Virus record (IMG/VR): IMGVR_UViG_3300037247_001314 | Coordinates: 1 to 64,000 of that record | Strand: one strand, 5' to 3' | Origin: a virus | DNA length: 64,000 nucleotides | Part shown: piece by piece, positions 17,683 through 34,852 of the stretch | How positions within the stretch are numbered: position 1 is the stretch's first letter | Layout of the letters: every line of letters starts with the position of its first letter | Position numbers and translations under genes: made by a program | The notes under the pieces: generated by a model | What the model was told of the DNA's origin: nothing | The model's database searches: none | What the model saw: the letters and a program-made list of their open reading frames with translations, nothing else

Positions 17683-19122
17683 TTAGGGCTGCCCCTTGAA
17701 GTTGGGGGCTCGACCGATGTTCCGGATGAGTACGGCCTTGCCCGGGGCATAGAGCACCGGAACTCCGTATACTAATTGCATCCAACGGATTGACGTCGAC
17801 ACGGTGGCCAGCGGCACCTTGAGGAATGGCGCCAACTGTTTCCAGCTGAGGCACTCAAGGTTCTGTTGCCAAAGGATGGCGATCGAGGTGAACGGCAAAC
17901 GATCGTTGACATCGTCGAAGGTGAACTCGCCCGCGCCAGCGGTGTTCGGGGTGCGAGCGATCTGCCGTTGTTTGCCAACAGCTCCGCCCTTTTTGGTGCG
18001 GTAGAGTTCGTACCACTTCACGCCGACGGCAGACCCGGGGGTCACACCGAACGTCATCTTGTCGCCTTCAGCAACGGCAATAGCACTGCCGTCGACAGCA
18101 ACGGCAACGCTACGGCCGAAGTCATTGTGCGCGGACACGCTGTAGAAGTAGGAACCTGCGTCTTCAGCGTCAAAGAGCGAGCCAGCGTCGGCCGGGGTTG
18201 TTGCGCCAGTCGAAATCGTTGGTGTCGCAGGACGCTGTGCGGCGTCGCCGGCCGCGGTAGCTTTCGGCGAACCGCCATCATTCACGAAAACATTCGGCTC
18301 AAAAAGCACATCGCCGGCCGGGCTGGTGAAGCCCTTGATATCGAGCCCAACCATCCCGTCCTTGCGCTTGTCCAGAAGGTCGTAGCGCCCCTTCGGGAAG
18401 AAGCTCTTGACGAGGTCAGCCTTAATCTTCGGATTGAGATGCAGGTGGGTCGGAATCCCGAAGTTCGGGTCGTCGCTGATGGTGAGCGCAGCGTCAATGA
18501 GGATGTCCTCGTCGAGCGGCTTACCACGCTGGTCGATGATGTTGTCAGCCGGCGCGTTGTCGGTGATGAGCTTCTCGTAGCCGTCAAACTGAATAGTCGA
18601 CAGCGAAGAGTCAGCGTAGAACAACGCACGCTCGACGATGCGCAAAAGCCACATCGTCCCCGCCACCGTTTCGTTTGCGATGACGTTGCCATGCGCCGGA
18701 CGAATCAAGCTCATCACGTGACTGACTGACCTGGTCGTGCCCAGGAACTTCACGGCCGCGTAGCGTCGAGCGAACGTAGAATCGTCCTCGGGAGGCAGCG
18801 CGCCCTCCGCGATGAAGCCCTCGATTCCTTCGCCGTAGCTCGAAATCTCGTTGTGCTCCTCGACGGTGTTGTACGCCGCGAGCTTGGGAATGGCCTTGAA
18901 CAGCCGGATGTGTTCCATCCGGTAGGTGACGTTCTTCAACGTCTGCTCGAGCGACTCAACGCGCAGAGGGAACCCCTGCCCCGGAGCAGCGCCCGGGTTG
19001 TTGATGTCGTTGCCCGCCGTGAGGGCCTTGTTCAGGTGGTCGAGGTCAGATTCCGAGAACGGATTTCCCGGCCCGAACCCGTCCACCCCGTCGTAGTCCT
19101 TCCAGGACACTTGGTCGATCAT
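17683..19122 (-). CDS. Major capsid protein (SPO1/Twort-like)
   Basis: LNKALTAG, LRVESLEQTLKNVT, KFLGTT, WKQLAPFLKVPLA, LVYGVPVLYAPGK...NIG; AAGGAG RBS. Confidence 0.93.
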   Translation of the reverse strand: MIDQVSWKDYDGVDGFGPGNPFSESDLDHLNKALTAGNDINNPGAAPGQGFPLRVESLEQTLKNVTYRMEHIRLFKAIPKLAAYNTVEEHNEISSYGEGIEGFIAEGALPPEDDSTFARRYAAVKFLGTTRSVSHVMSLIRPAHGNVIANETVAGTMWLLRIVERALFYADSSLSTIQFDGYEKLITDNAPADNIIDQRGKPLDEDILIDAALTISDDPNFGIPTHLHLNPKIKADLVKSFFPKGRYDLLDKRKDGMVGLDIKGFTSPAGDVLFEPNVFVNDGGSPKATAAGDAAQRPATPTISTGATTPADAGSLFDAEDAGSYFYSVSAHNDFGRSVAVAVDGSAIAVAEGDKMTFGVTPGSAVGVKWYELYRTKKGGAVGKQRQIARTPNTAGAGEFTFDDVNDRLPFTSIAILWQQNLECLSWKQLAPFLKVPLATVSTSIRWMQLVYGVPVLYAPGKAVLIRNIGRAPNFKGQP

Positions 19123-19887: not shown

Positions 19888-19901
19888 TTGTTGGGGTCTC
19901 C

Positions 19902-20744
19902 TCAGAGCCTTCCGTGCTCTGCCAGGGTTTCGAGCGTGCAATATGCGCGCTCTGCGAAAACGTGGTCGGCTCCGGGGAACCGAGTCAAAATGAGGGCGAG
20001 AGCCTCGCTCTTGCTGATGCGCTCGTCTTGCTGCGCCGCAAGGTCTTTCTCGTCGCTCTCCAAAGATTGGGGGGACAAGATGCGACCGGCACCTTCGCCA
20101 GTGGTCGAGCCTTGGGTACTTGGGTGCTCGCCAGCGGGGGCCGCGTTGCCAGTCGTCGCCGTCATAGCCTTGATGGCTTGCTGCGCAGCTTCTTCGTCGC
20201 CCTCTTCGATAGCCACCATGCTCTTCGCCAAACACTCCAGACGAGTACCAAAGCCTATGGGGCAGTTGGTAATAGCGGTGTGCTTTACGATCGCTTCAGC
20301 GACGGTCTTGCGGTTAGGGCCTGTGCGCCGGACGACATCACCCTCGATGGAAAAACCGAGGCGGCGTTCATTGCCCGCTTTTGCGAGAGCACGGCCAAGG
20401 TCCCAAATACGGTTAGCGCGCGGAGTGTCGACCATCCAGCCTTCAGCCCACGTGCCGTTCGCGTCGGCGGTTTGGCCGTCCGGCAGCAACTCGCCTTTTT
20501 GGAAACGACGCACACCCGTGGGATAGCCGAGGGGTGAGTCGGTGTCCTTGCTGTGGTTGTCGTTGAACCAACCACTCTCCAAAAACGGCTTAAAGTTGAG
20601 CCCCTTCTGGACGACGATTTCACCTTGCTTGTCGAGGATGTCTGTCGAAATAATACCAGCGATGCGCCTTCGCATTCCACGCGGACCGCTAGCCTTCTCA
20701 AAGAAGGACAGCGGAGCGAAGAACTTGAAAGGGTCAGCACCCAT
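19902..20744 (-). CDS. Prohead protease
   Basis: ISTDILDKQGE, GWFNDNH, LGFSIEG, AITNCP. Confidence 0.88.
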   Translation of the reverse strand: MGADPFKFFAPLSFFEKASGPRGMRRRIAGIISTDILDKQGEIVVQKGLNFKPFLESGWFNDNHSKDTDSPLGYPTGVRRFQKGELLPDGQTADANGTWAEGWMVDTPRANRIWDLGRALAKAGNERRLGFSIEGDVVRRTGPNRKTVAEAIVKHTAITNCPIGFGTRLECLAKSMVAIEEGDEEAAQQAIKAMTATTGNAAPAGEHPSTQGSTTGEGAGRILSPQSLESDEKDLAAQQDERISKSEALALILTRFPGADHVFAERAYCTLETLAEHGRL

Positions 20745-20871: not shown

Positions 20872-21108
20872 TTAAGATGTATCTGTACGTCCAGATGGAG
20901 TCAAGCTTCCGCTAGGGACGACATAGCGCTCTGGCGCCAAATCCAAACCATCGTCCAGACGAATAGGCAGCTCCACAGATTGCTTGCACCAATGACATTG
21001 TGCTCGCGCGACGCCCTTGTCGTCGAAGCGAACTATCCCCTGAATGCGCAGACGCGTCTCGTCGCCCGCCTTCTGGAGCAGTCTGTTTTTGCAATGCGGG
21101 CACCTCAC
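20872..21108 (-). CDS. Zn-ribbon protein (Mu Com-like)
   Basis: MRCPHCKNRLL...AQCHWCK. Confidence 0.55.
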   Translation of the reverse strand: MRCPHCKNRLLQKAGDETRLRIQGIVRFDDKGVARAQCHWCKQSVELPIRLDDGLDLAPERYVVPSGSLTPSGRTDTS

Positions 21109-21455
21109 TACAAAAACTCCTTGAACCGTTCCTCGAGCCTCGTTTGAGCCTCAGCCTCATTTGCCGCTGTTGGCCAATCCTCATCGGGGAACTGCGTGCC
21201 GAGTTCGGCGTAACGCTGCACCGTCGGCCAGAGCAGAAGGATAATGCCCTCAGCTGTTGGCACACGCAGGATACCGTCCTCGGGGTCATCAAGGAAGTCA
21301 GGGTGCTCGTCCAGAAAGGGGAGCCACAACTTCCCATTGCCCGGAGTGTTTGATAGCTGGAGTCGACCCGCAGACATGCTCACCTTCACGGCAGCTGTGA
21401 GCGGTTGGCGGGGGGAAACGCGCAAGTCGCGCACGATGTAAATGCCGGCTTTCAT
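21108..21455 (-). CDS. Hypothetical protein
   Basis: ATGA-coupled to the 2465-aa gene (MKAGIYIV). Confidence 0.55.
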   Translation of the reverse strand: MKAGIYIVRDLRVSPRQPLTAAVKVSMSAGRLQLSNTPGNGKLWLPFLDEHPDFLDDPEDGILRVPTAEGIILLLWPTVQRYAELGTQFPDEDWPTAANEAEAQTRLEERFKEFL

Positions 21456-24400
21456 GCGCCCACCTTCAGACCTTTGCACGCGTCCTTAAGTGCTGTGTCG
21501 GTCTGAGTACCCGTGAAGAAAAAGTCGTCGACGGGGACACCATTGATTTTGGTCTTGCCGGCAGTCTTCATCGTGTTGATGAGTTCGCTGCGGATGGACA
21601 ACGAGCGGCACCACACCCCGGCGATGTCCTCATGAGCGACGCCGTTTTCGAACATCACCTCGTGATTGCTACTCGTGAGCTTCAATACCTCTTCTTCAGG
21701 CTTGCCTGTGTTCTTCGTGTCGGACTGGATTTGCGAGCCGTAACGATCGTGATGATGCGCCCAATAGTCTGCGCGCTTGAGGACACGCGGATGGTAGATG
21801 TAGCGGACCTGCGTATCGCTGTCGTCGTAACCGTGCACTGAACTTGCACCAGGGCCGCCCTTGCGCGCGACGCGCACCATCGTGCCCGCAGCGCCGCCCG
21901 TGTTGATGTCGTCGCTAGCTTGCGAACTCTTTGGCGCGGTGCCGTTTGTGTAGCCTTGTTTCCTCGATGGGATGCCTGTCTCGCTGAGCAAGATTGACGC
22001 TGCAGCTCCCGGGGAAGCCCCGCCTGTGTGCGCGAAGTAGACGTCCTTGAGTTCCTCCTTGCTGAAGCGGTCAAACCAGACAGTGTGCGCTCCGCCAGCG
22101 CCAACACGAATCTCAGCGGTGTCGACGTACTTCGCGTAGTCCATTTTCTTCAGCTGGCCATCCAGCCAAGCCTCGTCAGCATACTTGCGCCTGTCGAGGT
22201 CGTTACCGTCGATGTCGTAGAGCCAGTGCCCGCGCGTGCCTAAGCCACACTTCACGATTTGACTCTTGATGAAGAGCCGCTCTGCATCAGCGTCGTGGGT
22301 GCTAGCCGCGAGCTCGGGGGAGACGCCTGCCATCTGGAGTACGTGTTGCAGCTCTGTCTGGACATCTTTCGAGACGGGAATGCGCGCGACGAGACGCCCA
22401 CGCATCGCTACCCCTGCGGCTTGCTTTGGATCGTCTGTCTGGACGTATTTACCAGCTTGGTACATCGTGCCGTTTTGGTGACAAACGCCGACGTAAGAAC
22501 CCCCATCGGTCTTGCCGTCGTAGCCACCCCAGCCGCCTTCGATAGGCGTGTTGCCTTTCTTGTGCAGCCCCGTGTCCTCGTCGTAGATGTCGAAGCTTGG
22601 TGCTCCCTTCTTGTCGACCGGATGGTAGTATTTGACAACGCCCTTCGAGAGCTTTGAAGCGTCAGGCTCAAAATGCAGAAGGTCGCCGGTGAGCTCGTAA
22701 TAATCTTCGCCGTCTGGGTTGTCGACGCGGCGCACACTCACTTGGTGGTTTTGCCAAAGCCCTGCAGCGCCGTGCCTGATGGAATGGCCCCAGTGCCCCA
22801 TCTTGAACGAGTCGAGCGCAGCGAGGTCCCCTTCGTTATTCACCGCGAGCCCGCCCTGCTTTTGTGGGCCGAGTGCGAATGGCACGGGTGCTTGCACAAA
22901 CGCTGGCGGAAGCTCGGGGAGTATCGGGGTGACTTCCTTTGACGTTTCAAAGGCAGCGTCGAGGTCGGCCTTCGACACCGTGAAGACGGTACTGACGGAT
23001 ACCTGCGGTTCCCCGTGAGCAGTGATACCCTTTGCCGCTAAATACGCTGCAGCGTCTTCCTTTACCTTCGCAGAGACGCCGTTGAACTTGATGACAAGTT
23101 TGTCGGGCTCGCTGTCGTGCGCCTTAATCTTTTTCGGTTTCCCGGGCTCGATAGCCGTGAGGTCCGCGAGTACAACATCCCGCACCGTTTTGGTGACAAT
23201 CTCGTTAACCTCAAAGGTGGTGCCTTTCGGGTAAGTCAGACCATCGTGCGCAGCCTTGAGATACTTAGCGTCTGGAAAACGTTTCGCGAGCGCGCTCTTC
23301 TTGACGACGAGCATCGTTCCAAGGGGCGAATCGGAATCCGTCGAGGGTGGCATTCCCTCCCAGTTCTCCACAGACGTGTGGAACGCATTCGCGTCTTTGC
23401 CGGCGAGCAAATAGTTACCCTTGCCGTCCTCATGAACGTGCAGGCCTGCAGTGTAGCCTCCGTCTGCTAGCTGCTTCTGGAAGTGTGCGAGTACAAGCAA
23501 GTCCTCCGCGTCGGTCGGCTTCAGATTGTCTTTCGCCCACGCAGTCCAAGCTTGCGCTTTCTTGATTTGCTCCGAGTTGACGGGAACCTTGGGCTTCACC
23601 ACCTGGAGCGTGACGGGAGTCTTTTTCTTTTTGACCTTGTCACCAGGCCACTGAACAGACGCCCCACCTGCGTCTTTCACTAGGCTCGCTATTTGGTGCG
23701 AGGCGTAGACGCCAATGCCTTCACCCATCTTGTCGACACCGGTGAACTTCGAGTACGGCTTCCCACCGTCGGCCGTGAAGATGTCGCCCCACTTCGTGTG
23801 GAGCTTCACGTTCGCAGGGAGTTCTTTGATTTTGTCGTTGATGGTCGTCGACTTGAGATGGCCGCCGAGTGCCTTGACTTTCTTCACGCCCGACGGGTGC
23901 GAGGGCGTCTTCACCGTCAACGGGTCGACGACGACAGAATGCGTAGCGACTGATGTGTTGCCGTAGAGGTTGCCGTCGTTACCCTTCCAATAGGTCACGT
24001 TCTCTTTGACGAGTTGAATGCCAAACTTGTGGTCGGAATGCAGGACCGTCCCCACAGGGAGAGCCTTGAGTTCTGCCGGCGTCATCGAAGAAAAGTTACC
24101 CAGCGCGGGATCGAAACCGGCGTAGCCTGAATCGCTCTCCAACGTGAAGTCGGCCACGAGACTCGACGGGATGCCTTCCGACATCGGCTCGCCATCGTCA
24201 CCGATACCGGCCCAGTTACCGTTGGCGAGCTTGACGAGCTTGTCTCCAGACTTCACATGCACGCTGGCCCCAACGGGAGCCGCCTCGAGCGTGTCGACTG
24301 AGTTCACCGGCGATGTGCCGGGCCAGTCGTAGTTTGGCGCCGGAGTAATTGTTGGCGGGGTGGACGCAGCCTCGATGGCAGTCGTCTCAACAGCAAACTC

Positions 24401-27400
24401 TTTTACTGTTGCGCCGTGGTCCCCGAGCAGGCACCACGCGTTTAGGGCTCCTATGTGGGCCTGTGCCGGCTTGAGCGGAGCGAGGTTGTGGTCGTCGATA
24501 AACGTTTGAAGTACACCAGCGGCTGAGAGGCTTGCTCCCGCATTTGGATAGAAACGGAGAACATGTTCGCCACCGTGTGGGCTCACGGTGAACTTGCCGC
24601 CGTACTTCTGCTGCACCGACTCTTGCTGGATGTAGTCGCCGAGCACCATCTTCGTGACGACGGCTTTCGTCTTTTGCTCGGGGGGAATGTCTTGTGGATG
24701 GGCGCCGATGGCGGAGTCAGCCGTTATTAGCGCAGCATGGGTCGCGAAAGTGTCGTCTTGAGCGAACGCAGCAGTGTCGAGGTGGAATGCTTCTTCCATC
24801 GCTTCGTAACTGCCAGTTTTGCCGAGCGCGCTCCCGAGCGCGTAGAGCGCCGTCTGATTAGCGTCCCCGTGCGTGACGGCGCCATCCTCATTAACCGCTA
24901 CAAACTTTACTTGCCAAGGCGCACTACCATCGGTGTTGTACCCACTTGCTGTCGTCGTAATCCAAGTTTTTTTGCCCTTCCATTCGCCTTGTAGCCAAAC
25001 GCCCGTAGGCGGAACCCATGGATCCCAATGCGGACTTTTCATGCCGTAGGTTTTGTCAGGCTTACCTGGAACCGGAGCACCGGCGAGCTTCTGCGCGTTT
25101 GTCCAGACGGCTTCCTTCTCAGCAAAATCGGGTAGCGATTCCTTCGTCGTCACGACTACCGGCCCTGGGTCGCCAGAGATAGACGGGGTGGCCGGGGACC
25201 AACCAGAGAGTAATAGCTCAAGCGGAGTAAGCTCTTTTGGTTCAGGCTGCACAGTGCTTACAGGGTCGTGGGGCATCTGGACGAGCCATTCGAACGACTC
25301 GGGCTGAAAGTCCTTTGGGCTGAATGCGAACTCATCGCCAAGTTTTTTGCTGTACCACTTGCTGTCGTTGTGCTTGGTGTAGGTGTCCTTATCGTGCGTC
25401 ACCGACGAGCCCGGAGCCATCGCGGTAAGTTCGGCTACCGTCAACGGCTTGGCCCCGGAGCCACCAGCTGCGCCTGGCTGATGGATGATTTTGAGGTCGC
25501 TAGCTGCCATCTCCGTTGCAGAGAAGTTTGACCCGATGGTGTTGACGTAGCCGTCAGCAACTTTTTTATACGTGTAGCCCGCTGAGTCCTTGAGCACAGA
25601 GTTGAGAGGAAGTTTTGAAAGCTCGACAAGAGACGGAAGTTTCGCGCCTTTCCAAAGAAGTTTGCTCTCAACGTCTGGAACTGGCCCCGGGAGCACCTTC
25701 CATGTTGTGGAACTCAACGGGAGAAAGTCCGGGTGCGTAACGATGTTGGTGCCAACTGCGACCCATTGCTCGTCAGACTCTTTGATGAACGCCTTCTCAC
25801 CGTTGTTGATCATTGAGCCGAGCGGCATGGCCGCGAGCTCGGCCAACGTGAGTTCTTTTGCGCCAAATAGCGCGGGCAGCACGCCTAGGGGCAGCGGCGA
25901 CTGCGCTGCAGGGGCGTCGGGGGCGAGGACCTTCATGCCGCCATACCCAGACGATGCGTCTCCGGCGATATCGGAACTCAGCTGCTCGTCGGATAACGCA
26001 GGAATATCGGTGATGCCTAATGGCTTCCATCCAGACGCAGTCTTAACCCAACCATCCTCGCCAGGAAGGGTCTCTGGGCCCGGCTTGGATCCCGGCTCGC
26101 CATAGACGAGCATGGTGCCTTCAGGAAGTGCAGCGAGTTCGTCGCCACTCGGAAGTTTCCAATCGTCCCAGCCCGGCTCTCCGGGCGCGCTCGGGGTGAG
26201 CGGCGTAGCGAACGTCATGAGTTCGCCGCTCTTTGGTTTCACGCCAAAAAACTCCCAACCACCTCCAGACGCAACCTTCGTCTTGCCGGTTTGCTTCTTA
26301 TAATCCGCTTTGTCCTCGTAACCCTTCTGGCGGAGCCAGACCCAATCACTTGCTGCCGACAGGCTTTTGAAGGTTTGCTCTGCATCCGCTGCAGCACCGG
26401 GGACACCAGCGATAGAAACCTTGAAGCCTTCTTCCAACACTTCAAGGTCGACCGCTACCTCGTACTCTTTTGTTCCAACGCCAGTGGGCGTCGGTAACAC
26501 AAATGGCTTGAGCATCGTGTGCTTGTGCCCAACAGGAAGCGGACCGCCCTTCTTTGGGTAGACGGGGTTCGCGAGGATGGTGTCCTGGACAACAAAGTCA
26601 GAAATCACCTCAGCCTTAGGCGCGAGCCCGACGACGGGCTTGGGGGGAGGGGGCGGCTTGGGCTTTTTGAGCTGCTGGGTCGCCTTCGCTGCTGCGGAAA
26701 CAGACGGGAGCAATAGCACGGGTTTGAGCCCCGGGCTGGAGGCAGAGAACGCGCCGTACTCTGTCGCTGCACCATTCGACGCTACAGAATAGTATTTGAA
26801 AAGAGGGGCGCCGTCTGGAGATTGGTGAGCGACATAAATGTCAAACGATCCACCTCCGTCGAGAGCTTTGATGACGCTGCCGGGGAGCGGAAGGTTGGCG
26901 GGCCAATCATGTGGCACCGTCGCCTTCGCGTGCTTGGCTGCAAACAACTTCGCAGCATTTGGGATGAGTGCGGAGTCAGCGATGATGCCGTCCTCGACGG
27001 TGGCCAGCATCTCGTGCAGCGTGAGCGCCTTCTGCTCAGGCGTGACCTTCTTTTCAGCGACGAGTTCTTCGTACGTCTTGCTCGCAATGGTAGCTGCGCC
27101 TTGCAGCCCCGCAGCCTTGAGGTCCTCTGCAAACTGTTCCAACTCAAAGAGCTTCGTCGCGCTGAGCGCGATGCCGTTCTTCTTCTTATCCGACGAGTTC
27201 ATGTCTAGCGGAAGATTCTTGTTGAACAGCTGAGTGCCGTCAGCTGCTGCCGCTGGCGACGGGTAGAGTATGAACTTGCCGTCTGGAAACTGCGCCTGCA
27301 CCTCCATCTTGCCCGAAAACGGATTCAGCTCAAAGGCAAACGCAAACGTGTTGCCCGCGACCTTCACAGACGCGTAGTAGCCCGGGCCCGGATAGTTGCT

Positions 27401-28849
27401 TGGCCATCCAGAGGGGTGCGGACCACCTGGATGCATAACGGTCACCTTGCCCTTTGTCATGGGCCAGCCAGGCACTTGGGCGACGTCGACGGGCTTGGCT
27501 GCTTTATCCTCGACAGGAGCCGCCGCGGGCGGACCTTCGTCTGCGCCGGGAATCGTGACGCTCTCACCCGTCATCTCCGATAGAAACGTTTCCCAGTTAC
27601 TGCGCAAGTCTTTGAACCGCTGCTCGATGAGTGCCCATTTTTTCTTAGGCGTGAACCCGTCAAGACCAGCGCCAGCTTCTTCGAGATAGGGCGCGACGAT
27701 GCTGTGGTACTGCTCCAGCGACAGGTTCTTCTCGATGCTGTTGAGCACCTCAGCTGCAGCCTTCACCGGATCGCCTTTGATGTCGCCCTGCTGAAAGAGC
27801 TTCCACATCGCGTTGTAGGCCGGCGAGCTCGGGTTGAGCTTGTAGCTGTCGCTAAGCTTGTCAGCGCCGATGGCCTTGAACGCTTGTCCCTTGTCGAGAG
27901 CAGCGATGTCGCCGTCCATCGTGTGGACGAAGTTGGCGCCGTGGCTGTCGTGGTTGCTCATCATCCAGTCGAGCACTTGGTGCTGAACAAGACGTTCAAA
28001 GTGCTTCTGAAGGACAGACGTCTGGACGCCGTGGTCGCCGCTCACCTCATTGCCGATGTTACCCTTGCTATCGATCCACGACAGGAGCACGCCTTTGTCG
28101 CCCTCGTGCGTGACCATCTCTGCGTCTGGATAGAGCTCGGGCTCGGGGAAGACGAGCTTGGCCACGCGGTTGAACACTTCTTCAGCGCGGGACACCCAAG
28201 TCTGGCCGTTGTTAGTTTTCCAAGCGTATTGATTCCCTTTGTCGTCAACGACAATCTTGCCACCGTGGGTTCCGCCTAGCGCGCCTTTGAGCTTAAGTGT
28301 CGCGAGCATCGTGTCGGAGAACGGAGGGTCCTCGTCAGCGCCGGAAGCGCCCTTCGCTGCCCACGCGACCAACTCGTCTGCATGCGGAATGAGAGGCTCG
28401 CCGACGTGGTCCCACAGCGACGAGGTCTTCACTTTCACCATGCCGCCAGTAGGCACGGTCTTAAGGTCGGGGAAAGAATCCGTGAGTTTCTTAGCGTCGG
28501 CAGCAGACACCACGAACACGCCCGCGTAGCCGTGCCCTTTTGCTGTGACGCCTAGCTCGTCGAGCCAGGCTTCTATTTGCTTGGCGTGGTCGCTATCTGC
28601 GGGGTGCTGCGCCGGGGGCGCCTTTAGAGTCTTTGCCGCGGTCTTCTGCGCTTTGAGTTTCTTCGCAGCCGCTGACCCGCCGTAGACAGGCTTGCCGTTC
28701 TTCCAGCCAACAATCTTTCCACCTTTGGGGCCGATGGCGATTACGGCCATGCCATCCGCGTAGCCAAGCTTCGGCTTCGGGGCCTTGCTTAAGCCGCCAT
28801 GGGCCTTGGCAAAGACAGTGGGCTCAATCGCTAGTGCTGTCTGGAACAT
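21452..28849 (-). CDS. Giant multidomain (polyvalent-type) protein: PI3K/HipA-like kinase, RAMA-like domain, 7 short repeats, C-terminal ART-like domain
   Basis: LGGTHGG..YAWK..AEEV..DWMMSNHDSHGANF..LDKGQAF; FKSLSAAS..GGGWEFF; ELxxLPxG repeats; FAH..SILLSETGIPS..HEVMFENGV..DI. Confidence 0.7.
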   Translation of the reverse strand: MFQTALAIEPTVFAKAHGGLSKAPKPKLGYADGMAVIAIGPKGGKIVGWKNGKPVYGGSAAAKKLKAQKTAAKTLKAPPAQHPADSDHAKQIEAWLDELGVTAKGHGYAGVFVVSAADAKKLTDSFPDLKTVPTGGMVKVKTSSLWDHVGEPLIPHADELVAWAAKGASGADEDPPFSDTMLATLKLKGALGGTHGGKIVVDDKGNQYAWKTNNGQTWVSRAEEVFNRVAKLVFPEPELYPDAEMVTHEGDKGVLLSWIDSKGNIGNEVSGDHGVQTSVLQKHFERLVQHQVLDWMMSNHDSHGANFVHTMDGDIAALDKGQAFKAIGADKLSDSYKLNPSSPAYNAMWKLFQQGDIKGDPVKAAAEVLNSIEKNLSLEQYHSIVAPYLEEAGAGLDGFTPKKKWALIEQRFKDLRSNWETFLSEMTGESVTIPGADEGPPAAAPVEDKAAKPVDVAQVPGWPMTKGKVTVMHPGGPHPSGWPSNYPGPGYYASVKVAGNTFAFAFELNPFSGKMEVQAQFPDGKFILYPSPAAAADGTQLFNKNLPLDMNSSDKKKNGIALSATKLFELEQFAEDLKAAGLQGAATIASKTYEELVAEKKVTPEQKALTLHEMLATVEDGIIADSALIPNAAKLFAAKHAKATVPHDWPANLPLPGSVIKALDGGGSFDIYVAHQSPDGAPLFKYYSVASNGAATEYGAFSASSPGLKPVLLLPSVSAAAKATQQLKKPKPPPPPKPVVGLAPKAEVISDFVVQDTILANPVYPKKGGPLPVGHKHTMLKPFVLPTPTGVGTKEYEVAVDLEVLEEGFKVSIAGVPGAAADAEQTFKSLSAASDWVWLRQKGYEDKADYKKQTGKTKVASGGGWEFFGVKPKSGELMTFATPLTPSAPGEPGWDDWKLPSGDELAALPEGTMLVYGEPGSKPGPETLPGEDGWVKTASGWKPLGITDIPALSDEQLSSDIAGDASSGYGGMKVLAPDAPAAQSPLPLGVLPALFGAKELTLAELAAMPLGSMINNGEKAFIKESDEQWVAVGTNIVTHPDFLPLSSTTWKVLPGPVPDVESKLLWKGAKLPSLVELSKLPLNSVLKDSAGYTYKKVADGYVNTIGSNFSATEMAASDLKIIHQPGAAGGSGAKPLTVAELTAMAPGSSVTHDKDTYTKHNDSKWYSKKLGDEFAFSPKDFQPESFEWLVQMPHDPVSTVQPEPKELTPLELLLSGWSPATPSISGDPGPVVVTTKESLPDFAEKEAVWTNAQKLAGAPVPGKPDKTYGMKSPHWDPWVPPTGVWLQGEWKGKKTWITTTASGYNTDGSAPWQVKFVAVNEDGAVTHGDANQTALYALGSALGKTGSYEAMEEAFHLDTAAFAQDDTFATHAALITADSAIGAHPQDIPPEQKTKAVVTKMVLGDYIQQESVQQKYGGKFTVSPHGGEHVLRFYPNAGASLSAAGVLQTFIDDHNLAPLKPAQAHIGALNAWCLLGDHGATVKEFAVETTAIEAASTPPTITPAPNYDWPGTSPVNSVDTLEAAPVGASVHVKSGDKLVKLANGNWAGIGDDGEPMSEGIPSSLVADFTLESDSGYAGFDPALGNFSSMTPAELKALPVGTVLHSDHKFGIQLVKENVTYWKGNDGNLYGNTSVATHSVVVDPLTVKTPSHPSGVKKVKALGGHLKSTTINDKIKELPANVKLHTKWGDIFTADGGKPYSKFTGVDKMGEGIGVYASHQIASLVKDAGGASVQWPGDKVKKKKTPVTLQVVKPKVPVNSEQIKKAQAWTAWAKDNLKPTDAEDLLVLAHFQKQLADGGYTAGLHVHEDGKGNYLLAGKDANAFHTSVENWEGMPPSTDSDSPLGTMLVVKKSALAKRFPDAKYLKAAHDGLTYPKGTTFEVNEIVTKTVRDVVLADLTAIEPGKPKKIKAHDSEPDKLVIKFNGVSAKVKEDAAAYLAAKGITAHGEPQVSVSTVFTVSKADLDAAFETSKEVTPILPELPPAFVQAPVPFALGPQKQGGLAVNNEGDLAALDSFKMGHWGHSIRHGAAGLWQNHQVSVRRVDNPDGEDYYELTGDLLHFEPDASKLSKGVVKYYHPVDKKGAPSFDIYDEDTGLHKKGNTPIEGGWGGYDGKTDGGSYVGVCHQNGTMYQAGKYVQTDDPKQAAGVAMRGRLVARIPVSKDVQTELQHVLQMAGVSPELAASTHDADAERLFIKSQIVKCGLGTRGHWLYDIDGNDLDRRKYADEAWLDGQLKKMDYAKYVDTAEIRVGAGGAHTVWFDRFSKEELKDVYFAHTGGASPGAAASILLSETGIPSRKQGYTNGTAPKSSQASDDINTGGAAGTMVRVARKGGPGASSVHGYDDSDTQVRYIYHPRVLKRADYWAHHHDRYGSQIQSDTKNTGKPEEEVLKLTSSNHEVMFENGVAHEDIAGVWCRSLSIRSELINTMKTAGKTKINGVPVDDFFFTGTQTDTALKDACKGLKVGA

Positions 28850-28881: not shown

Positions 28882-29193
28882 CTACTGAGGAACGACGAAG
28901 GTGACTGCCTTCTTCTTTTTCTTTTTGGGAAAGCTTTTGCTGAGTGCAACCTCCAAGTCGACGTCGTCTGGCAGCGCGTGCTGTTGTGCGAGTTCGCCAT
29001 CAATGCGGATGTCGTAAAAGGTGCCGGCGAGTTCAGGATTCGCCCCTTCAATGAGCAAATCGCGCTTGCCCGCTACCCACGCACGCGCGTAGTCGCCAAG
29101 CACCTTCATGCCCTGCGGCGTGAAAGAGCCGTCGTCGTTCTCCGTCGCTAGCGCTTTCGAAAGCTCGACCGTTATCTGGATGTGCTCAACCAT
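28882..29193 (-). CDS. Hypothetical protein (LSKA/LSKS sites)
   Basis: Coupled to the MuF gene; poly-Lys then AVTFVV tail. Confidence 0.55.
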   Translation of the reverse strand: MVEHIQITVELSKALATENDDGSFTPQGMKVLGDYARAWVAGKRDLLIEGANPELAGTFYDIRIDGELAQQHALPDDVDLEVALSKSFPKKKKKKAVTFVVPQ

Positions 29194-31687
29194 TGCTCGC
29201 CTTCTTTCTAGCGCGGGCTCGTTGCTGGATGAGTTCGTACGCTTTCTCCTGCGTCTTCTGCGCGTTCTTGGTGCGTGTTTCAGCGACGGGGATGTGTGGA
29301 TTGTCCTCGCGGAAGTTCGCTACCAACGTCGTGCCGATGTCTTGGCGCCGATGTTTCTTTGCGACAACGAGGTTGGTACCGTCGTACTTCGCGATGGGCT
29401 TGCCCTCATGTGTCACCACGTAGTTGGCGCGGGTCGCATCGTCGTTGTGCCCACGATGCACTTCGAACTTGCTGCTGTGCCCTTCAACCTTAAACTCCTC
29501 GGGCTTCACGTGCTCAGTAAGCTTGCTGTGCTTGGGCACGAGGTCGCTCGCGTGGCCGGCTTTAGTCCGTTTGGGTTTACCGAGAAACTCTTCGCGGGAC
29601 ATCTCGTGCGCGTGTTTGTCGGCGTAGATGGGCTTTCCAGCCGCAGTGTGCCCCACCACCTTGCCCCCGCGCGAACCTTCTCCAGCCTTGTTCACGAGGT
29701 CAATAGGTTTGCGCTCCCCGTCGCCCTCGATGATGCGCGCGTCGTCGGTCTGCTCGGGGTAGCGCGGTCGGCCTTCCAGTTGCACAGGATGCCACTGACC
29801 CTCTGGCTGCCGTGTTGCTCCGCGGTTGGTCGGCACATCGCGCATCTGGAAGCTCAGGCGCTCCACCTCGCGTTTGTGCTCTTCGGCGCGGTTCTCCGTC
29901 TCATCCGGCGTGATGATGTTCTTCGTGTTCCCGTGTGCGTCGGCGATCGGGTAGATCTGATTGTCGACTCCGCCCCCGAACACATAAATCTCGGGGTCTC
30001 GACGCACGATGACGTCAGCGCGGTGCTGTGCGTCTTGAAGGTACGCAACTACGCCAGCTACGTCGTGTGGGTTGTGGGGTTTGTCTGGAAGGTCGGCTTG
30101 GATGTTCACCCCGCCGCCGCTGCCCTCCTTGAGGATGAACTGTCCGCCGCCAACAGCAAACGCAGCACCGCTCACCCCCTCGACGTGGGGCAACGCTTTG
30201 AAGAGGGTAACTGCTCTCCGGCGAAGTTTTCGGCGCACCGTGAACCGCGCTTCAGGCTCCAGCGGCGCAGGCGGTGGTGCTACAGGCGCAACGTAGTTTG
30301 GGTTGGGGATAATAAACTCAGGTTCCGCTTTCACAAGCTTGCGCGGTTTGTCGCGCGTGGTCGCGAGTTCCGTTTTGAGCTTGTTCATCGACATCGTCGT
30401 CATGCTGCCGAAGAACCCTTTGTCATCGTAGTTGCCAATGTACGCAGCCTTTGCTTCTGCCGCCGACGAGAAGCCCAGCATAATCTTGTCCTCGTCGTAG
30501 CCCTCAAACTTGCCCTCCAACGTCCGCTTGCGCTGATGCACAATGTACGCGCTTGGCGCGAGCGGGTTTGGGCCGACGAAGCAGTCGACGTGGTCTCCGT
30601 CGACGCCAAGCGTGCGCCGGATGTAGCCGTACGGCCAAAGCATGACGGTTGCGCCATCGGTCTTGTTCTTGTGGTCTTTCCAAAACCGGAGGCCTCCCGC
30701 CCCATTCTCAATAGCCACATCAAGCCCCTGGAACTGCAGCTCTCCGTCCAGACGGTACGCCTTCACCAACGCATCCATATGGAGCGCTTCCAGACGCATA
30801 GCCTTCTCAACGTCCTCAGAGTCCCCTTCGTACTCAACGCCAAACTCGCCGGCAGGAATCATCGTGCCGTCCTCGTCGTAACCCCAGCCCGCAGGAACGC
30901 GCACGATTTGGCATTGGCAGTTTGGGTGAATGGCGCCGATGCAGGCCACCCAGTCAGCAGCTTTCTTGCCTACGTTCGCGCCCGGTGGGGCCAACTGCGA
31001 GAGCTTGAAAATGATGGGAGCGCCATCTGGACCGAGGTGGAGGCGCTTGCAATGTTTGCACGCATCCGGCATCGGAATGAGCGAGACGCGCGCTTCGGGG
31101 CCGTACTGTTTACGGAAGCCATCGCCGACACCCTCCTGCATGACGTTGTGGTTTTCGGTGATGGCAATGCGGTCGAGATCCCGCGTCCAATCCTGCATCG
31201 AATGCCCGAGCCTACTTTTGAGAGTCCCTACTGTTTTCCGGGAGGCAATCTTCTCAGCCGTCTCTGTCCGGATTTTACCCTGCAGCTCTCTGCGCTGTGC
31301 GCGGTCTGCCTCGACAAGGACCTGCCCTGTCTGGAGATCGATGGTATTGCCAAGTCCCACGACGTACTGCGCAGCATTTAGCTTTGCTGTCTGGACAGCC
31401 TGCACTTCCACCGCCGACAGTGGGATGGGGTTCTTTGTGAGTTCAGCTTTCACCTTGGCAAGGTCCCACGTCGGCATGTTGGGGTCCTGGAGCTTGGCCA
31501 CCAGCTGGCCGTAGTTGTACGCCGTCTCGAACAGGTCCTCGTGGCCTTCCAAAAGGCCAGCGTCCTGCAGCTCTTTCACCATCTCCGGTGGTATAGCGGC
31601 AGGGCCGAACACGTCGACGACAAAAGCCGCGTTGTGCTTCTGGATGATGTCCTTCACCACGCGCAGGAGCTCGGGAGTGAGTTTCAC
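29186..31687 (-). CDS. MuF (SPP1 gp7-like) head morphogenesis protein fused to inorganic pyrophosphatase-like and GNAT-like domains
   Basis: RIAITE..DACKHC..IHPNCQC (MuF); IENG..YGYIRRTLGVDGDHVDCFVG..DEDKIMLGF (InPase); VVAKKHRRQDIGTTLV (GNAT motif A-like). Confidence 0.85.
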   Translation of the reverse strand: MKLTPELLRVVKDIIQKHNAAFVVDVFGPAAIPPEMVKELQDAGLLEGHEDLFETAYNYGQLVAKLQDPNMPTWDLAKVKAELTKNPIPLSAVEVQAVQTAKLNAAQYVVGLGNTIDLQTGQVLVEADRAQRRELQGKIRTETAEKIASRKTVGTLKSRLGHSMQDWTRDLDRIAITENHNVMQEGVGDGFRKQYGPEARVSLIPMPDACKHCKRLHLGPDGAPIIFKLSQLAPPGANVGKKAADWVACIGAIHPNCQCQIVRVPAGWGYDEDGTMIPAGEFGVEYEGDSEDVEKAMRLEALHMDALVKAYRLDGELQFQGLDVAIENGAGGLRFWKDHKNKTDGATVMLWPYGYIRRTLGVDGDHVDCFVGPNPLAPSAYIVHQRKRTLEGKFEGYDEDKIMLGFSSAAEAKAAYIGNYDDKGFFGSMTTMSMNKLKTELATTRDKPRKLVKAEPEFIIPNPNYVAPVAPPPAPLEPEARFTVRRKLRRRAVTLFKALPHVEGVSGAAFAVGGGQFILKEGSGGGVNIQADLPDKPHNPHDVAGVVAYLQDAQHRADVIVRRDPEIYVFGGGVDNQIYPIADAHGNTKNIITPDETENRAEEHKREVERLSFQMRDVPTNRGATRQPEGQWHPVQLEGRPRYPEQTDDARIIEGDGERKPIDLVNKAGEGSRGGKVVGHTAAGKPIYADKHAHEMSREEFLGKPKRTKAGHASDLVPKHSKLTEHVKPEEFKVEGHSSKFEVHRGHNDDATRANYVVTHEGKPIAKYDGTNLVVAKKHRRQDIGTTLVANFREDNPHIPVAETRTKNAQKTQEKAYELIQQRARARKKASNG

Positions 31688-32935: not shown

Positions 32936-34852
32936 CTACAGGTCGAGGTCAATGTGCAAAACTGCGGCTCGGCGCTCGGCCTTCTTCAGTTTCGTAGCAA
33001 GGTGTGCGCGCTGGCCATCATACTGATCGGCGAGGGCGGACTCTCGCGCTGCGTGCGCCTTGTACTGCACAGCTAGGGCGCGAGCTTGGTCCCGCTCCAC
33101 TTTCAAATCGTGAATGGGCTGCCCCTTGCGTAGCGCCGCATCCGCGCGCATGGCCTCGGTAGGTGAGTGCGTCCAGAGACCGTCGGCGCTCTGAAGCCAA
33201 CCATCCATCCATCCCATCGACTTCGCAGCCGCATCAGGCTTAGCAGGCTTGCCGGGAGGACCACCCTCAACGTTGTTGCTTGCGCCTTCGTCGTCAGCCG
33301 CGTTCTCATTCTGGATGCCATCGAGTTCGCCGCCGAAGCCGTCGTCTTCCTCGCCAGGCTCGGGGGGAGGGGCGAAGTCGCCGACCTCCATGTCCTGCTG
33401 AGCGGCCATCGTCTTGTTCTGCATCCAGACAGGGTTGAGGATGACCTCGCCTTCGCCGTCTGGAAGCGGTGGCAAGTCTTCTTCGGCACGCACTTCGTCC
33501 ACGGTCTTGTACGACGACACGAGCTTGGTGTTGAGGTCTGCGAGCTCCTCGGGCGACGCAGCGTCGAGCCCCACGAAAGCAAACTCGAAGTCCTCGTCGA
33601 TGCGGTGGACGAGGTACGACGACAACCGGTGCGCGATGAACCGAAGCAGCGGTTGCAGCCCTTTGTCTTTCGAGTTCGCGAGCTTCTGTTTGTTGTTGCT
33701 CTCAAACATCGACGATGCGCCGCCGCTGTCGCCGTACTTGAAGTTGATTTCAAGCGGGTCCATCCCATAAATGGCGCACGCAACCTTGATGAGGAAATCG
33801 AACCACGCGCTAAACTCCATGTCTTTGTTGGACTCTTGGAGCTTGATGTATTCCAGACCTTCGGCGTTGGTGATGGGAGTTTTGAACGCGTTCTCGATGC
33901 CGGCGACCATCGAGTACCAGTGTCGACGGAAAGCGCGCAGCTGGCGCTCAGGCACCGCACCCTTGAAGTTGATGATGCCCTTGGAGCTTGTGCCTTGACT
34001 GAAAAACTTTTGGTTGTAGTCCCATGACCAAAGCAGCGACGTCACCGTCGTGATGAGCATCTCCGTCTCAGCAACGCCGTAGCCTTGGTTGCGAATGTCG
34101 GTGACGGGGTTGCGGATGCCGAAGCACAGTTGGTCCGCGCCATACTCCGCGGTGACGAGGCCATCATAAATCTGGACGTAGCGCGTCTCGTCTGGGTTCC
34201 CTTGGTAGTGGAGCTTGGTGGTGTCTGCGATGCGCAACGTAGCGCCGTCGACGGCGTAGAAGTCGAAGGGTTTGTGCCCGCGGTCTTCGCGCACCTCAAA
34301 ACCCATCTGGTCGTAGGTGAGCGCGTCGCGAGTGATTTTGCGAAGGAACGTCTCAAAGTTGTCACGGGCGTTCGGGGTAGCCTCGTCAGCCACCTTGCCC
34401 GTCGTCATCATCCAGTTGGTGATTTCTTTGCTCATCTTCTCGCTGGCACGAGAGGGGGCTGCCTTGCGGTCGCGCAGCTGAATGCGGAAACCTGTCTGGA
34501 ACTTATCCTCTTGCGGCATCGAGAACGACGCCAGCTGGTCGGTGCGAGTTTTGATTATCGCCTGGAGGATGGGCATGCGAAAGACCATCGCCTGCAGCGT
34601 CGAATAGCTGATGGAGCTCGGGCGCTCTTTATACCCGAGCGCGTCGATGACGCTGAACGGGTCCCAAAAAAGTGCCTTAGGCTCCGCCGTGGGGTCGCCA
34701 ATCTCCGACGGGTGCATTGCAGCGGTCGCAGGTGTGTTCTCCGACGGCTGTGCACCATCGTCGTCCTCGTCACCCTGAGCTTTGGCGAGGACGTCGAGGG
34801 CAGCTACCGAAGCAGCGCCCGCGGCGTCTCGCATGGTATCGAACAACCCCAA
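32936..34852 (-). CDS. Portal protein
   Basis: IIKTRTDQ, RDALTYDQ, FYAVDGATLR, YNQKFFSQG, NKDMEFSAW, SKDKGLQPLL, TVDEVRAEEDLPPL. Confidence 0.92.
   Translation of the reverse strand: MGLFDTMRDAAGAASVAALDVLAKAQGDEDDDGAQPSENTPATAAMHPSEIGDPTAEPKALFWDPFSVIDALGYKERPSSISYSTLQAMVFRMPILQAIIKTRTDQLASFSMPQEDKFQTGFRIQLRDRKAAPSRASEKMSKEITNWMMTTGKVADEATPNARDNFETFLRKITRDALTYDQMGFEVREDRGHKPFDFYAVDGATLRIADTTKLHYQGNPDETRYVQIYDGLVTAEYGADQLCFGIRNPVTDIRNQGYGVAETEMLITTVTSLLWSWDYNQKFFSQGTSSKGIINFKGAVPERQLRAFRRHWYSMVAGIENAFKTPITNAEGLEYIKLQESNKDMEFSAWFDFLIKVACAIYGMDPLEINFKYGDSGGASSMFESNNKQKLANSKDKGLQPLLRFIAHRLSSYLVHRIDEDFEFAFVGLDAASPEELADLNTKLVSSYKTVDEVRAEEDLPPLPDGEGEVILNPVWMQNKTMAAQQDMEVGDFAPPPEPGEEDDGFGGELDGIQNENAADDEGASNNVEGGPPGKPAKPDAAAKSMGWMDGWLQSADGLWTHSPTEAMRADAALRKGQPIHDLKVERDQARALAVQYKAHAARESALADQYDGQRAHLATKLKKAERRAAVLHIDLDL

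Follow-up and report, generated by a model that had tools for sequence, protein, structure and literature searches.

What is the function of a single protein of 2465 residues whose gene lies in the head-assembly region of an uncultured phage with a ~107-kb (106.8-kb) genome? The window is the whole stretch of DNA that was analysed, positions 1 to 64,000 (64,000 nucleotides) of IMG/VR record IMGVR_UViG_3300037247_001314. The initial annotation, made from the letters alone, had described the protein as a combination of a kinase-like domain and a DarT/ART-like (ADP-ribosyltransferase) domain, and had inferred an injected enzyme for host takeover or anti-defence that could both phosphorylate and ADP-ribosylate. 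The head-gene setting and the pairing of a kinase with an ART in many phage proteins indicate that it is probably enzyme cargo, which the capsid would hold and deliver together with the DNA. The gene itself is as follows.

21452..28849, minus strand: giant gene P0001, 2465 aa (open frame, Shine-Dalgarno-like site before the ATG and full-length relatives)

The frame is open throughout and real, as had been claimed; the Shine-Dalgarno-like site, GGGTGGTG, lies 5 nt upstream of the ATG, and full-length relatives range from 2158 to 3102 aa. Matches to relatives reach E values of 1e-164 across the kinase region and 6e-186 across the C-terminal 476 residues. The whole protein has no sequence match in Pfam, NCBIfam or the PDB, and its sole match against Pfam, PHROGs and NCBIfam is one 38-residue PHROG of unknown function. 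Neither domain is recognised above threshold by curated models (Pfam, NCBIfam, PADLOC, PDB sequence profile), and PDB sequence searches with each end of P0001, the ART family profile and the whole-family profile gave chance matches or none. Against cultured phages, megablast with the giant gene found no match, and tblastn matched the kinase core alone, in 12 mycobacteriophage records. In the ESM Atlas, the C-terminal 476 residues and the 115-aa partner described below matched only clusters of hypothetical proteins or weak META-like entries (TM<0.5); a search of the IMG/VR loci with the C-terminal protein alone gave no close relative. Structure prediction on each domain, proposed in advance as a check, returned both a kinase fold and an ART fold.

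27593..28309, minus strand: protein-kinase-like domain of the PI4K/CtkA/HipA branch, residues ~181-419 (AF2 model and VIA)
27929..27955, minus strand: catalytic loop NHDSHGANF, residues 299-307 (conservation among relatives)
27878-27895, minus strand: DFG-equivalent DKGQAF
28217-28219, minus strand: ATP-binding lysine K211

The AF2 model of residues 165-445 (pLDDT 93.3) has a protein-kinase-like fold, with VIA Z scores of 15.4 to PI4KIIalpha, 14.5 to CtkA, 12.6 to MavQ, 12.1 to CotH, 11.8 to VPS34 and 11.2 to HipA. The motifs first quoted for this domain were all located (LGGTHGG at 190-196, YAWK at 208-211, AEEV at 222-225, NHDSHGANF at 299-307 and DKGQAF at 319-324); K211, E224, D301, H303 and D319 are invariant among 34-53 relatives and N306 is at least 90% conserved. 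Pfam models PF00454 and PF07804 are matched by 5/18 (best 1.3e-5) and 4/18 (best 2.7e-7) kinase relatives, respectively. P0001 falls below the curated threshold of both, with HipA_C at E 0.097 and 12.7 bits versus a cut-off of 30.5, and has weak HipA_C/ABC1 matches at residues 281-311. As modelled, the N-terminal domain is a kinase fold of PI4K/CtkA/HipA type with a complete predicted active site, so that the assignment to the PI3K/PI4K/HipA branch was borne out with all catalytic residues present. PI4KIIalpha, CtkA and HipA have in common with P0001 the fold, the D-x-H-x-x-N catalytic loop and the D-[KF]-G metal-binding motif, but the N-terminal subdomains of HipA and the helical domain of the lipid kinases are missing from it. 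The modelled fold alone is compatible with a protein, lipid or small-molecule substrate, and the class cannot be told from it.

21500..22072, minus strand: DarT-like ADP-ribosyltransferase-fold domain, residues ~2260-2450 (AF2, Foldseek and VIA)
21659..21661, minus strand: E2397, predicted catalytic glutamate, N/H-E-x-x-F at the start of a strand (conservation and model)
22178..22882, minus strand: conserved domain preceding the ART, residues ~1990-2224 (co-aligned with the ART)

The AF2 model of the last 241 residues (pLDDT 84.5, pTM 0.85) has an ADP-ribosyltransferase fold. Its top Foldseek matches are all DarT, followed by other ARTs. VIA aligned DarT1 (8baq) over 167 residues with Z 11.5 and rmsd 3.6, and gave Z 10.9, 10.5 and 9.8 for the DarT-domain structures 7omu, 7omv and 7yk3. 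In this exhaustive comparison with 48,161 PDB chains, the four DarT structures hold ranks 1-4, Tpt1 comes next with Z 7.3, and only 48 chains, nearly all of them ARTs, reach Z>=2. DarT1 and DarT2 of the DarTG systems (PF14487; 8BAQ, 7OMV, 7OMU, 7YK3; PMC11543638) are the nearest solved folds, with Z 9.8-11.5 over 160-167 residues, in agreement with the fold first proposed for the C-terminus.

The C-terminal motifs were likewise located (YFAH at 2271-2274, SILLSETGIPS at 2285-2295 and HEVMFENGV at 2396-2404), although the H...SIL..G..S...E layout drawn from them held only in part. Among 194 non-identical domains, its glutamate, E2397, is 99% conserved, but the histidine of YFAH (H2274) is not conserved (Y 33%, W 9%, H 8% at that position) and is no family signature. 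The signature is instead S-x3-D-x3-GG, F-x-R, R-x-D, D-x-[YF]-G and N-E, with D2314 and D2368 100%, R2326 94% and R2359 93% conserved. Since the kinase residues and E2397 are conserved and strong relatives of the giant exist, the motifs originally quoted are more than chance. Three well conserved ART positions are changed in P0001 and its closest relatives (Q replaces S at 2310, M replaces F at 2324 and H replaces N at 2396), so the ART may have lost or changed some of its activity.

As in DarT, the conserved glutamate is predicted to lie on the strand that bears the ART catalytic glutamate, and the beta-1 position occupied by F18 in DarT1 is likewise mostly aromatic (Y/W/H) in the giant family. 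The positions of E2397, D2314 and R2326 fit the aligned ranges of DarT1 (residues E152, R52, D54 and N48/D49), at the level of ranges only; from these ranges rather than a residue-level superposition, E2397 is the putative equivalent of DarT1 E152. No Pfam match, including the DarT model, was found in the C-terminal 476 residues at E<=10; the DarT model was matched by 1/31 relatives (E 0.005) and by nothing in a six-frame search of the phage genome, and PADLOC called no DarT in the ART family. Because no Pfam, PADLOC or NCBIfam model matches, the C-terminal domain is DarT-like in fold and not a member of the DarT family. PF03496, the Alt/VIP2-type exoenzyme ART, has no match in P0001, and the VIP2 structure gives Z 2.1. 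The 106.8-kb genome encodes no Macro (DarG) or NADAR domain. It does contain, ~45 kb from the giant, a gene for an ADP-ribosylglycohydrolase (ARH, PF03747), which is also present in 4/5 related 100-kb phages. ARH as a general partner of the giant family was not supported, the gene being found in 0/5 MuF-class proviruses, whose records are incomplete, and its link to the giant may be simply shared ancestry.

The genes around the giant define its setting.

32936..34852, minus strand: portal protein (phrog_12 1e-55, PF04860 1.7e-25)
29186..31687, minus strand: MuF-like minor head protein with an InPase domain (phrog_115/phrog_4660; PF18823 InPase 2.5e-29)
28882..29193, minus strand: 103-aa partner gene between MuF and the giant (synteny)
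21108..21455, minus strand: 115-aa acidic partner gene, whose start ATG overlaps the stop of the giant (ATGA)
19902..20744, minus strand: head maturation protease (phrog_1028 2.8e-30)
17683..19122, minus strand: major capsid protein, MCP (phrog_752 2.4e-83)

The MCP is 37% identical to capsid proteins of SPO1-like Herelleviridae. The order portal, MuF, 103-aa gene, giant, 115-aa gene, protease, scaffold and capsid is conserved in all 15 related giant-class loci (L001-L014, L018). A homologue of the 103-aa gene stands directly upstream of the giant in each of these 15 loci, in three of them (L005, L011, L018) within a longer frame. A homologous acidic gene of 96-161 aa abuts or overlaps the stop of the giant in 11/11 complete related giant loci, or 12/12 with this phage counted. 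Searches matched the 103-aa gene to no family and the 115-aa protein to no known family or fold; both products are candidate chaperone or inhibitor partners, the 115-aa gene being coupled to the giant in translation.

A constant property of the family is the pairing of the two enzymes. When 80 IMG/VR loci were recruited by the kinase domain alone, 64 carried the ART in the same open frame, and these are all the complete genes; of the other 16, 15 have frames that run off the contig or the fetched stretch, and L079 is a short frame ending just past the kinase. Both domains are present in 73/92 proteins of at least 1000 aa, the kinase is always N-terminal to the ART, and the ART without the kinase never occurs in complete genes. 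The two domains form an obligate pair and are found together in hundreds of phage proteins. Relatives of 1100-1620 aa are MuF-kinase-ART fusions, and those of 1100 aa keep kinase and ART and lose the middle. A MuF domain (PF04233) is found in the relatives P0090, P0106, P0141, L024, L040 and L075. In mycobacteriophage Onyinye gp16 and in P0019, the same kinase family is followed by a C-terminal PF03496 ART, so the kinase-plus-ART logic outlasts a change of ART. The C-terminal 476 residues are matched by at least 360 clusters at 50% identity, in most cases over the ART core, and the kinase is encoded in at least 174 IMG/VR loci; members include prophages and cultured mycobacteriophages. P0001 itself has no PF04233 match, its MuF being the separate gene at 29186-31687, and this lack of a MuF domain of its own counts against a packaged effector.

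Outside the two enzymes, the N-terminus holds two conserved motifs.

28802..28813, minus strand: F-A-K/A, residues 13-16, candidate prohead-protease site (conserved motif)
28682..28726, minus strand: KGGKIVGW-x3-GKPVY, residues 42-56 (most conserved N-terminal block)

The first, as [FL]-x-K-[AS], is kept in 10/10 aligned relatives; the scaffold holds 10 sites of the same protease motif type and the MCP has one, at residue 30. Judged from the motif, the prohead protease would cleave the giant at F-A-K/A. A polyprotein studded with such sites was considered and not supported: 19 phi-x-K-[AGS] motifs were counted where 20.6 are expected, the residue-13 site alone is conserved outside the active site, and without enrichment of internal sites cutting into separate enzymes is unsupported. 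The second motif recurs near residue 40 in ~20 giant relatives, and a like motif, RGGKVVGHTAAGKPIY, is found at residue 673 of the MuF of this phage and in head-module frames of L013 and L018, with 0 matches in 5 shuffles. It is a possible head-targeting or docking peptide. The domain preceding the ART is aligned along with it in most giant-class matches (query 1-475 of the C-terminal 476 aa) and is missing in MuF-class relatives, whose matches begin near query residue 270-320. The middle of the giant, ~1500 residues with no recognisable domain, is the least conserved part and the most variable in length; no internal repeat reached E<=1 in self-BLAST, three ELxxLPxG sites came out of a motif scan, and the middle may be structural.

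We consider it reasonably probable that the giant is a predicted multi-enzyme effector of the polyvalent or MuF type, packaged in the capsid and injected; its head-module position and MuF-fused relatives fit this, and the N-terminal protease-type site and the motif in common with MuF lend packaging indirect support. The packaging, cleavage, injection, catalysis and targets that we infer run as follows. The giant would be made alongside the head proteins and enter the procapsid; the prohead protease would probably trim it at its conserved N-terminal site, and it would be released with the DNA into the next host cell. As the pair is obligate and of fixed order, both enzymes are expected to act together, and they would use ATP and NAD+ to modify macromolecules of the host at an early stage of infection. 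The aim would be host takeover or counter-defence, with the T7 Gp0.7 kinase and the T4 Alt ART as separate analogues.

Polyvalent proteins have been described in phages and conjugative elements (Iyer, Burroughs, Anand, de Souza, Aravind 2017, PMC5512222; NAD+/ADPr survey PMC9503650) and, like P0001, are large multidomain proteins with several effector enzymes, encoded among virion and packaging genes. P0001 combines kinase and ART in one frame, with portal, MuF, protease and MCP as neighbours. ARTs are the commonest macromolecule-modifying domain of the class and kinases are present too (PMC5512222, PMC9503650), and the InPase domain defined there (PMC5512222) is the one found in the neighbouring MuF gene. 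The differences lie in the enzymes: the polyvalent kinase, as described there, is a truncated Ser/Thr/Tyr-kinase clade without the C-lobe whereas that of P0001 is of the PI4K/CtkA/HipA branch, and the ART of P0001 has a DarT-like fold with no Pfam model. Term searches of PMC5512222 and PMC9503650 found no passage on an obligate kinase-then-ART pair.

MuF fusion is the accepted mark of head-packaged cargo (PMC5512222, PMC5576092), and the relatives of the giant, as MuF-kinase-ART fusions, resemble the MuF polymorphic toxins of temperate phages (Jamet et al. 2017, PMC5576092). The giant could then be a phage-borne polymorphic toxin, with a growth-inhibiting ART (DarT-like, on ssDNA or RNA) and the 115-aa protein as its immunity protein, serving competition between lysogens or the lysis-lysogeny decision and not host takeover. 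The C-terminal ART followed by a small acidic gene at the stop in 12/12 loci matches the classic toxin-immunity layout, in fold the ART comes closest to the DNA toxin DarT, and MuF-fused relatives occur in proviruses, as in the MuF toxin model (PMC5576092). However, the 115-aa partner is missing from MuF-class loci with the same ART, a simple toxin-immunity cassette does not account for the lack of complete genes with the ART but no kinase, and neither lysogeny evidence, for this phage and its 100-110-kb relatives, nor a Macro or NADAR antidote in the genome was seen. A toxin with its immunity gene is unlikely. Compared with the known systems, MuF toxins carry MuF in the same protein while P0001 has it two genes upstream, a kinase is absent from the list of Jamet et al. 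(PMC5576092), and DarT is a stand-alone defence-system toxin whereas the ART of P0001 is fused to a kinase in a virion-module giant, has its own signature and matches no sequence model.

A chiefly structural or ejection role, in which the long middle does the main work and the enzyme-like ends are accessory or degenerate, appears rather improbable; the giant would then be an internal head or 'ejectosome' body, or an element that sets length or pressure. Its size and slot beside the portal recall ejection proteins, its middle offers ~1500 domainless residues with short repeated ELxxLPxG-type modules, and its ART deviates at three conserved positions; but it is the two enzyme domains, with strongly conserved catalytic residues, that are the constant parts of the family, and the variable middle that the 1100-aa relatives drop.

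Tpt1, the second-nearest fold, ADP-ribosylates phosphates. It is most doubtful that the two enzymes work in succession or upon one another and not in parallel, the phosphate being an acceptor for the ART or a switch keeping it silent in the producing cell: the obligate, ordered pairing, its persistence with a swapped ART family, the Tpt1 likeness and the ARH gene in this phage and 4/5 relatives speak for it, but the acceptor is purely hypothetical, the mycobacteriophage replacement is a protein-targeting R-S-E exoenzyme ART, which argues against DarT/Tpt1-specific chemistry, and ARH was not found in the five incomplete MuF-class provirus records. An equally speculative elaboration is a two-step machine in which a kinase-placed phosphate, on a nucleic-acid end or host protein, would be capped with ADP-ribose, or the kinase would gate the ART until injection, with ARH as eraser and the 115-aa protein as safety catch.

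For the packaged, injected effector that we favour, functional precedents exist as separate proteins of separate phages and different families. T4 Alt is an ART that is carried in the head, undergoes processing by the head protease and is injected, and T7 Gp0.7 is a phage kinase that reprograms host transcription and translation. No Alt-type or Gp0.7-type sequence similarity was found in P0001, which is predicted to hold both activities. The mycobacteriophage 'minor capsid/ADP-ribosyltransferase' fusions (Onyinye gp16) share its kinase family, with a PF03496 ART instead of the DarT-like one. What happens in the first minutes of infection is decided by head-packaged effectors, of which, to our knowledge, few have been studied beyond T4 Alt. 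The giant belongs to a large unnamed family, in which the constant coupling of kinase and ART, whichever the ART clade, is an unexplained rule that is directly testable, and cultured relatives such as Onyinye gp16 give experiments a starting point. With this family the DarT defence toxins gain a relative on the virus side, and the question arises of whether phages turn DarT-like chemistry on their hosts. If the two-step machine is true, virions would deliver a coupled phospho/ADP-ribosyl modification of a new kind.

P0001, the 2465-residue giant protein, is almost certainly the product of a real gene with a kinase fold at one end and an ADP-ribosyltransferase (ART) fold at the other. The IMG/VR record of the phage is 106.8 kb long, has a G+C content of about 59% and is judged 99% complete, the window being its first 64 kb. 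The giant gene is preceded by a ribosome-binding-like site, GGGTGGTG, and lies inside a head-morphogenesis block, every gene of which is on the minus strand:

32936-34852, minus strand, portal (PF04860, phrog_12)
29186-31687, minus strand, MuF-like minor head protein with InPase domain
28882-29193, minus strand, 103-aa gene between MuF and the giant gene
21452-28849, minus strand, giant gene, an open frame of 2465 codons
21108-21455, minus strand, 115-aa gene downstream of the giant gene
19902-20744, minus strand, head maturation protease
19210-20235, minus strand, scaffold-like gene between the protease and major capsid protein genes, listed as a 341-aa GTG frame
17683-19122, minus strand, major capsid protein (phrog_752)

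The gene order portal, two small genes, MuF, 103-aa gene, giant, small acidic gene, protease, scaffold and capsid is kept in all 15 related giant-class loci, which encode relatives of about 2000-3100 aa. The major capsid protein has 37% identity to SPO1-like Herelleviridae capsid proteins, and no close relative of the giant gene was found among cultured phages. The relatives include P0005/L001, which is 78-80% identical. Since the 341-aa frame of the scaffold-like ORF overlaps the protease gene and has an Arg-rich, low-complexity start, the real scaffold start is probably near the internal MDQTQLQ (residue ~116); over its ~225 residues the real part carries the phi-x-K-[AGS] motif 10 times, in keeping with a scaffold that the protease degrades.

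The giant is likely to be a capsid-packaged, injected effector, for which the signs are indirect, the conserved gene order being one of them. Fusion to MuF is an accepted sign of capsid-delivered cargo (PMC5512222, PMC5576092), and shorter relatives of P0001 carry such a fusion. All 10 relatives aligned keep the sequence [FL]-x-K-[AS] found at residues 13-16 of the giant. The same motif type is dense in the scaffold, with 10 sites, and is seen in the capsid protein at residue 30; this sequence pattern is as expected for a candidate prohead-protease site. Inside the giant phi-x-K-[AGS] is not enriched (19 seen, 20.6 expected), which leaves the cutting of the protein into separate enzymes unsupported. 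KGGKIVG-x4-GKPxY is conserved near residue 40 of the giant and had 0 matches in shuffled controls. The wider form of this motif is common to the giant and MuF and could serve as a peptide for capsid targeting or for docking:

28682-28726, minus strand, [KR]GGK[IV][IV]G-x4-GKP[IV]Y in the giant, preceded by phi-x-K-A
about 29624-29671, minus strand, the same motif in the C-terminal part of MuF (residues 673-688), preceded by phi-x-K-A

Weaker forms are seen in the 836-aa and 368-aa head-module proteins. A similar KGGKIVG-type motif is present in head-module ORFs of two other phages (loci L013 and L018).

The ATG of the 115-aa gene overlaps the TGA of the giant gene (ATGA). In each of the 11 related giant loci that are complete, the giant's stop is abutted or overlapped by a homologous acidic gene 96-161 aa long, which makes 12/12 giant loci with that of this phage; the gene was not found in MuF-class loci, which encode the shorter MuF-kinase-ART fusions. 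A MuF-type toxin for which the 115-aa protein would provide immunity is an unlikely reading of the giant. No known family and no confident fold were found for the 115-aa protein. The 103-aa gene upstream of the giant is as conserved as the acidic gene downstream, and the products of both are candidate chaperones or inhibitors. Mechanical ORF calling downstream of the giant would yield either a GTG-started form of 123 aa or, at 20912-21337, a spurious ORF of 141 aa rich in Cys and Arg; the real gene is the 115-aa one. For the ART, the phage has a possible eraser in an ADP-ribosylglycohydrolase (ARH):

G000:C1:73875-74732 (locus L081, outside the window), minus strand, ARH (PF03747, E 1.4e-60)

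ARH is present in four of five related 100-110-kb phages and in none of five MuF-class proviruses, the records of which are only ~50% complete, and no Macro or NADAR gene was found in this phage genome.

The initial annotation had predicted kinase-like and DarT/ART-like domains in P0001, and all the motifs that it quoted are in their places. They are not there by chance. Among the kinase residues, K211, E224, D301, H303 and D319 do not vary in alignments of 34-53 relatives, in which N306 reaches at least 90% conservation. No curated sequence model recognises the kinase region of P0001, where HipA_C and ABC1 match the catalytic loop below threshold; among relatives, PF00454 matches 5/18 and PF07804 4/18. 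The AlphaFold2 model of residues 165-445 (34 sequences) has a pLDDT of 93.3 and its Foldseek search returned only protein-kinase-like structures, bearing out the predicted fold. PI4KIIalpha was the top VIA-align match (Z 15.4, rmsd 3.9, 231 aligned), followed by CtkA (14.5), MavQ (12.6), CotH (12.1), VPS34 (11.8) and HipA (11.2). These Foldseek and VIA-align rankings of the model assign the domain to the PI3/4K-HipA-CtkA branch, with a complete predicted active site, and it is quite probably an active kinase. The branch comprises protein, lipid and other kinases. Tandem kinase-like copies are seen in L030:7451-14278 (+) (residues 848-1070 and 1131-1366, plus ART) and in the database relative P0014 (residues 1244-1469 and 1530-1764, without a DarT-like ART).

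The last 476 residues of P0001 matched at least 360 proteins at E<=1e-3 among 1.84 billion representatives, the majority of the matches being confined to about the last 200 residues. The model of the last 241 residues (31 sequences; pLDDT 84.5, pTM 0.85) agrees with the predicted ART fold, its top Foldseek matches being DarT structures, then other ARTs only. VIA-align put DarT1 8baq first, at Z 11.5 over 167 aligned residues (rmsd 3.6); the DarT-domain structures 7omu, 7omv and 7yk3 came at 10.9, 10.5 and 9.8, Tpt1 at 7.3, and SopF, OspC3 and CteC at about 6. When the search was run exhaustively over 48,161 chains, just 48 scored Z>=2, nearly all of them ARTs. The nearest viral predicted structures are uncharacterised giant-virus proteins, betabaculovirus ORF32 and an iridovirus protein, and such arthropod-virus proteins (ORF28 family) are linked to DarT in PMC9503650. 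The Pfam DarT model did not match the C-terminal domain of P0001 and matched one of 31 relatives (E 0.005), PADLOC had no match in the ART family, and the family profile matched no PDB chain in the ART region. The DarT-like C-terminus of the initial annotation thus stands as to nearest solved fold, but not by sequence, and the domain is best regarded as a so far unnamed ART family with DarT as its closest solved fold.

Across 194 non-identical C-terminal domains, D2314 and D2368 are conserved in 100%, E2397, G2318 and G2371 in 99%, R2326 in 94% and R2359 in 93%. The YFAH histidine (H2274), earlier taken as an ART signature, is not one, the position being Y in 33%, W in 9% and H in 8%. The mostly aromatic nature of this position across the family recalls F18 of DarT1, which stacks on nicotinamide from strand 1 (PMC11543638). 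At three positions that the family otherwise conserves well, P0001 and its two nearest relatives have another residue: Q replaces S at 2310, M replaces F at 2324 and H replaces N at 2396. Because of these deviations the prediction only leans towards an active ART. A mainly structural role for the giant is quite unlikely.

Pairing of the two domains was counted in 80 IMG/VR loci recruited by kinase alignment alone. The DarT-like domain is in the same open frame as the kinase in 64 of them, a count of 64 of 64 among complete genes. Of the 16 loci without it, 15 have a frame cut off by the end of the contig or of the fetched stretch, and the remaining locus, L079, has a short frame ending just past the kinase domain. 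Of 92 database proteins no shorter than 1000 aa, 73 have both domains, and in each of them the kinase precedes the ART. In the giant architecture (2000-3100 aa) the kinase lies around residues 180-420 and the ART forms the C-terminus; the short one (1100-1620 aa) is a MuF-kinase-ART fusion, often with a Rho_N-like helix-hairpin between. In mycobacteriophage Onyinye gp16 (1340 aa), which adjoins terminase and portal, and in the MuF-kinase-ART protein P0019, the ART that comes after a kinase of the same family is of the PF03496 exoenzyme type and replaces the DarT-like one. The pairing thus outlasts a change of ART clade, which argues for a functional link of kinase and ART. Protein and nucleic acid are both candidate targets, and the swap slightly favours protein targets over DarT-specific chemistry. 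A sequential or self-regulating kinase-ART machine, another form that a fixed kinase-first pairing could take, is very unlikely. In P0092, a MuF-kinase-ART protein of 1447 aa, an intein-splicing-domain match (PF14890, E 7e-7, below cut-off) is seen between MuF and kinase.

Residues ~900-1700, the least conserved stretch of the giant, include a 38-residue match to phrog_4024 (function unassigned) at 1515-1552. Short recurring modules with an (E/D)LxxLPxG(T/S) start and a Trp end are seen in this stretch (window 23760-26140, minus strand); the regular expression matches at 904, 1004 and 1593, with looser copies by eye, and self-BLAST of the giant found no repeats at E<=1.

Head-packaged polyvalent or MuF-linked effectors, including ARTs and kinases, are a concept already known from sections of PMC5512222, PMC9503650 and PMC5576092, in which no description was found of the kinase clade of P0001, its DarT-like ART clade or their obligate pairing. 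As parts of an injected effector, the kinase and the ART would, on balance, both target host macromolecules at an early stage of infection, in the service of takeover or counter-defence.
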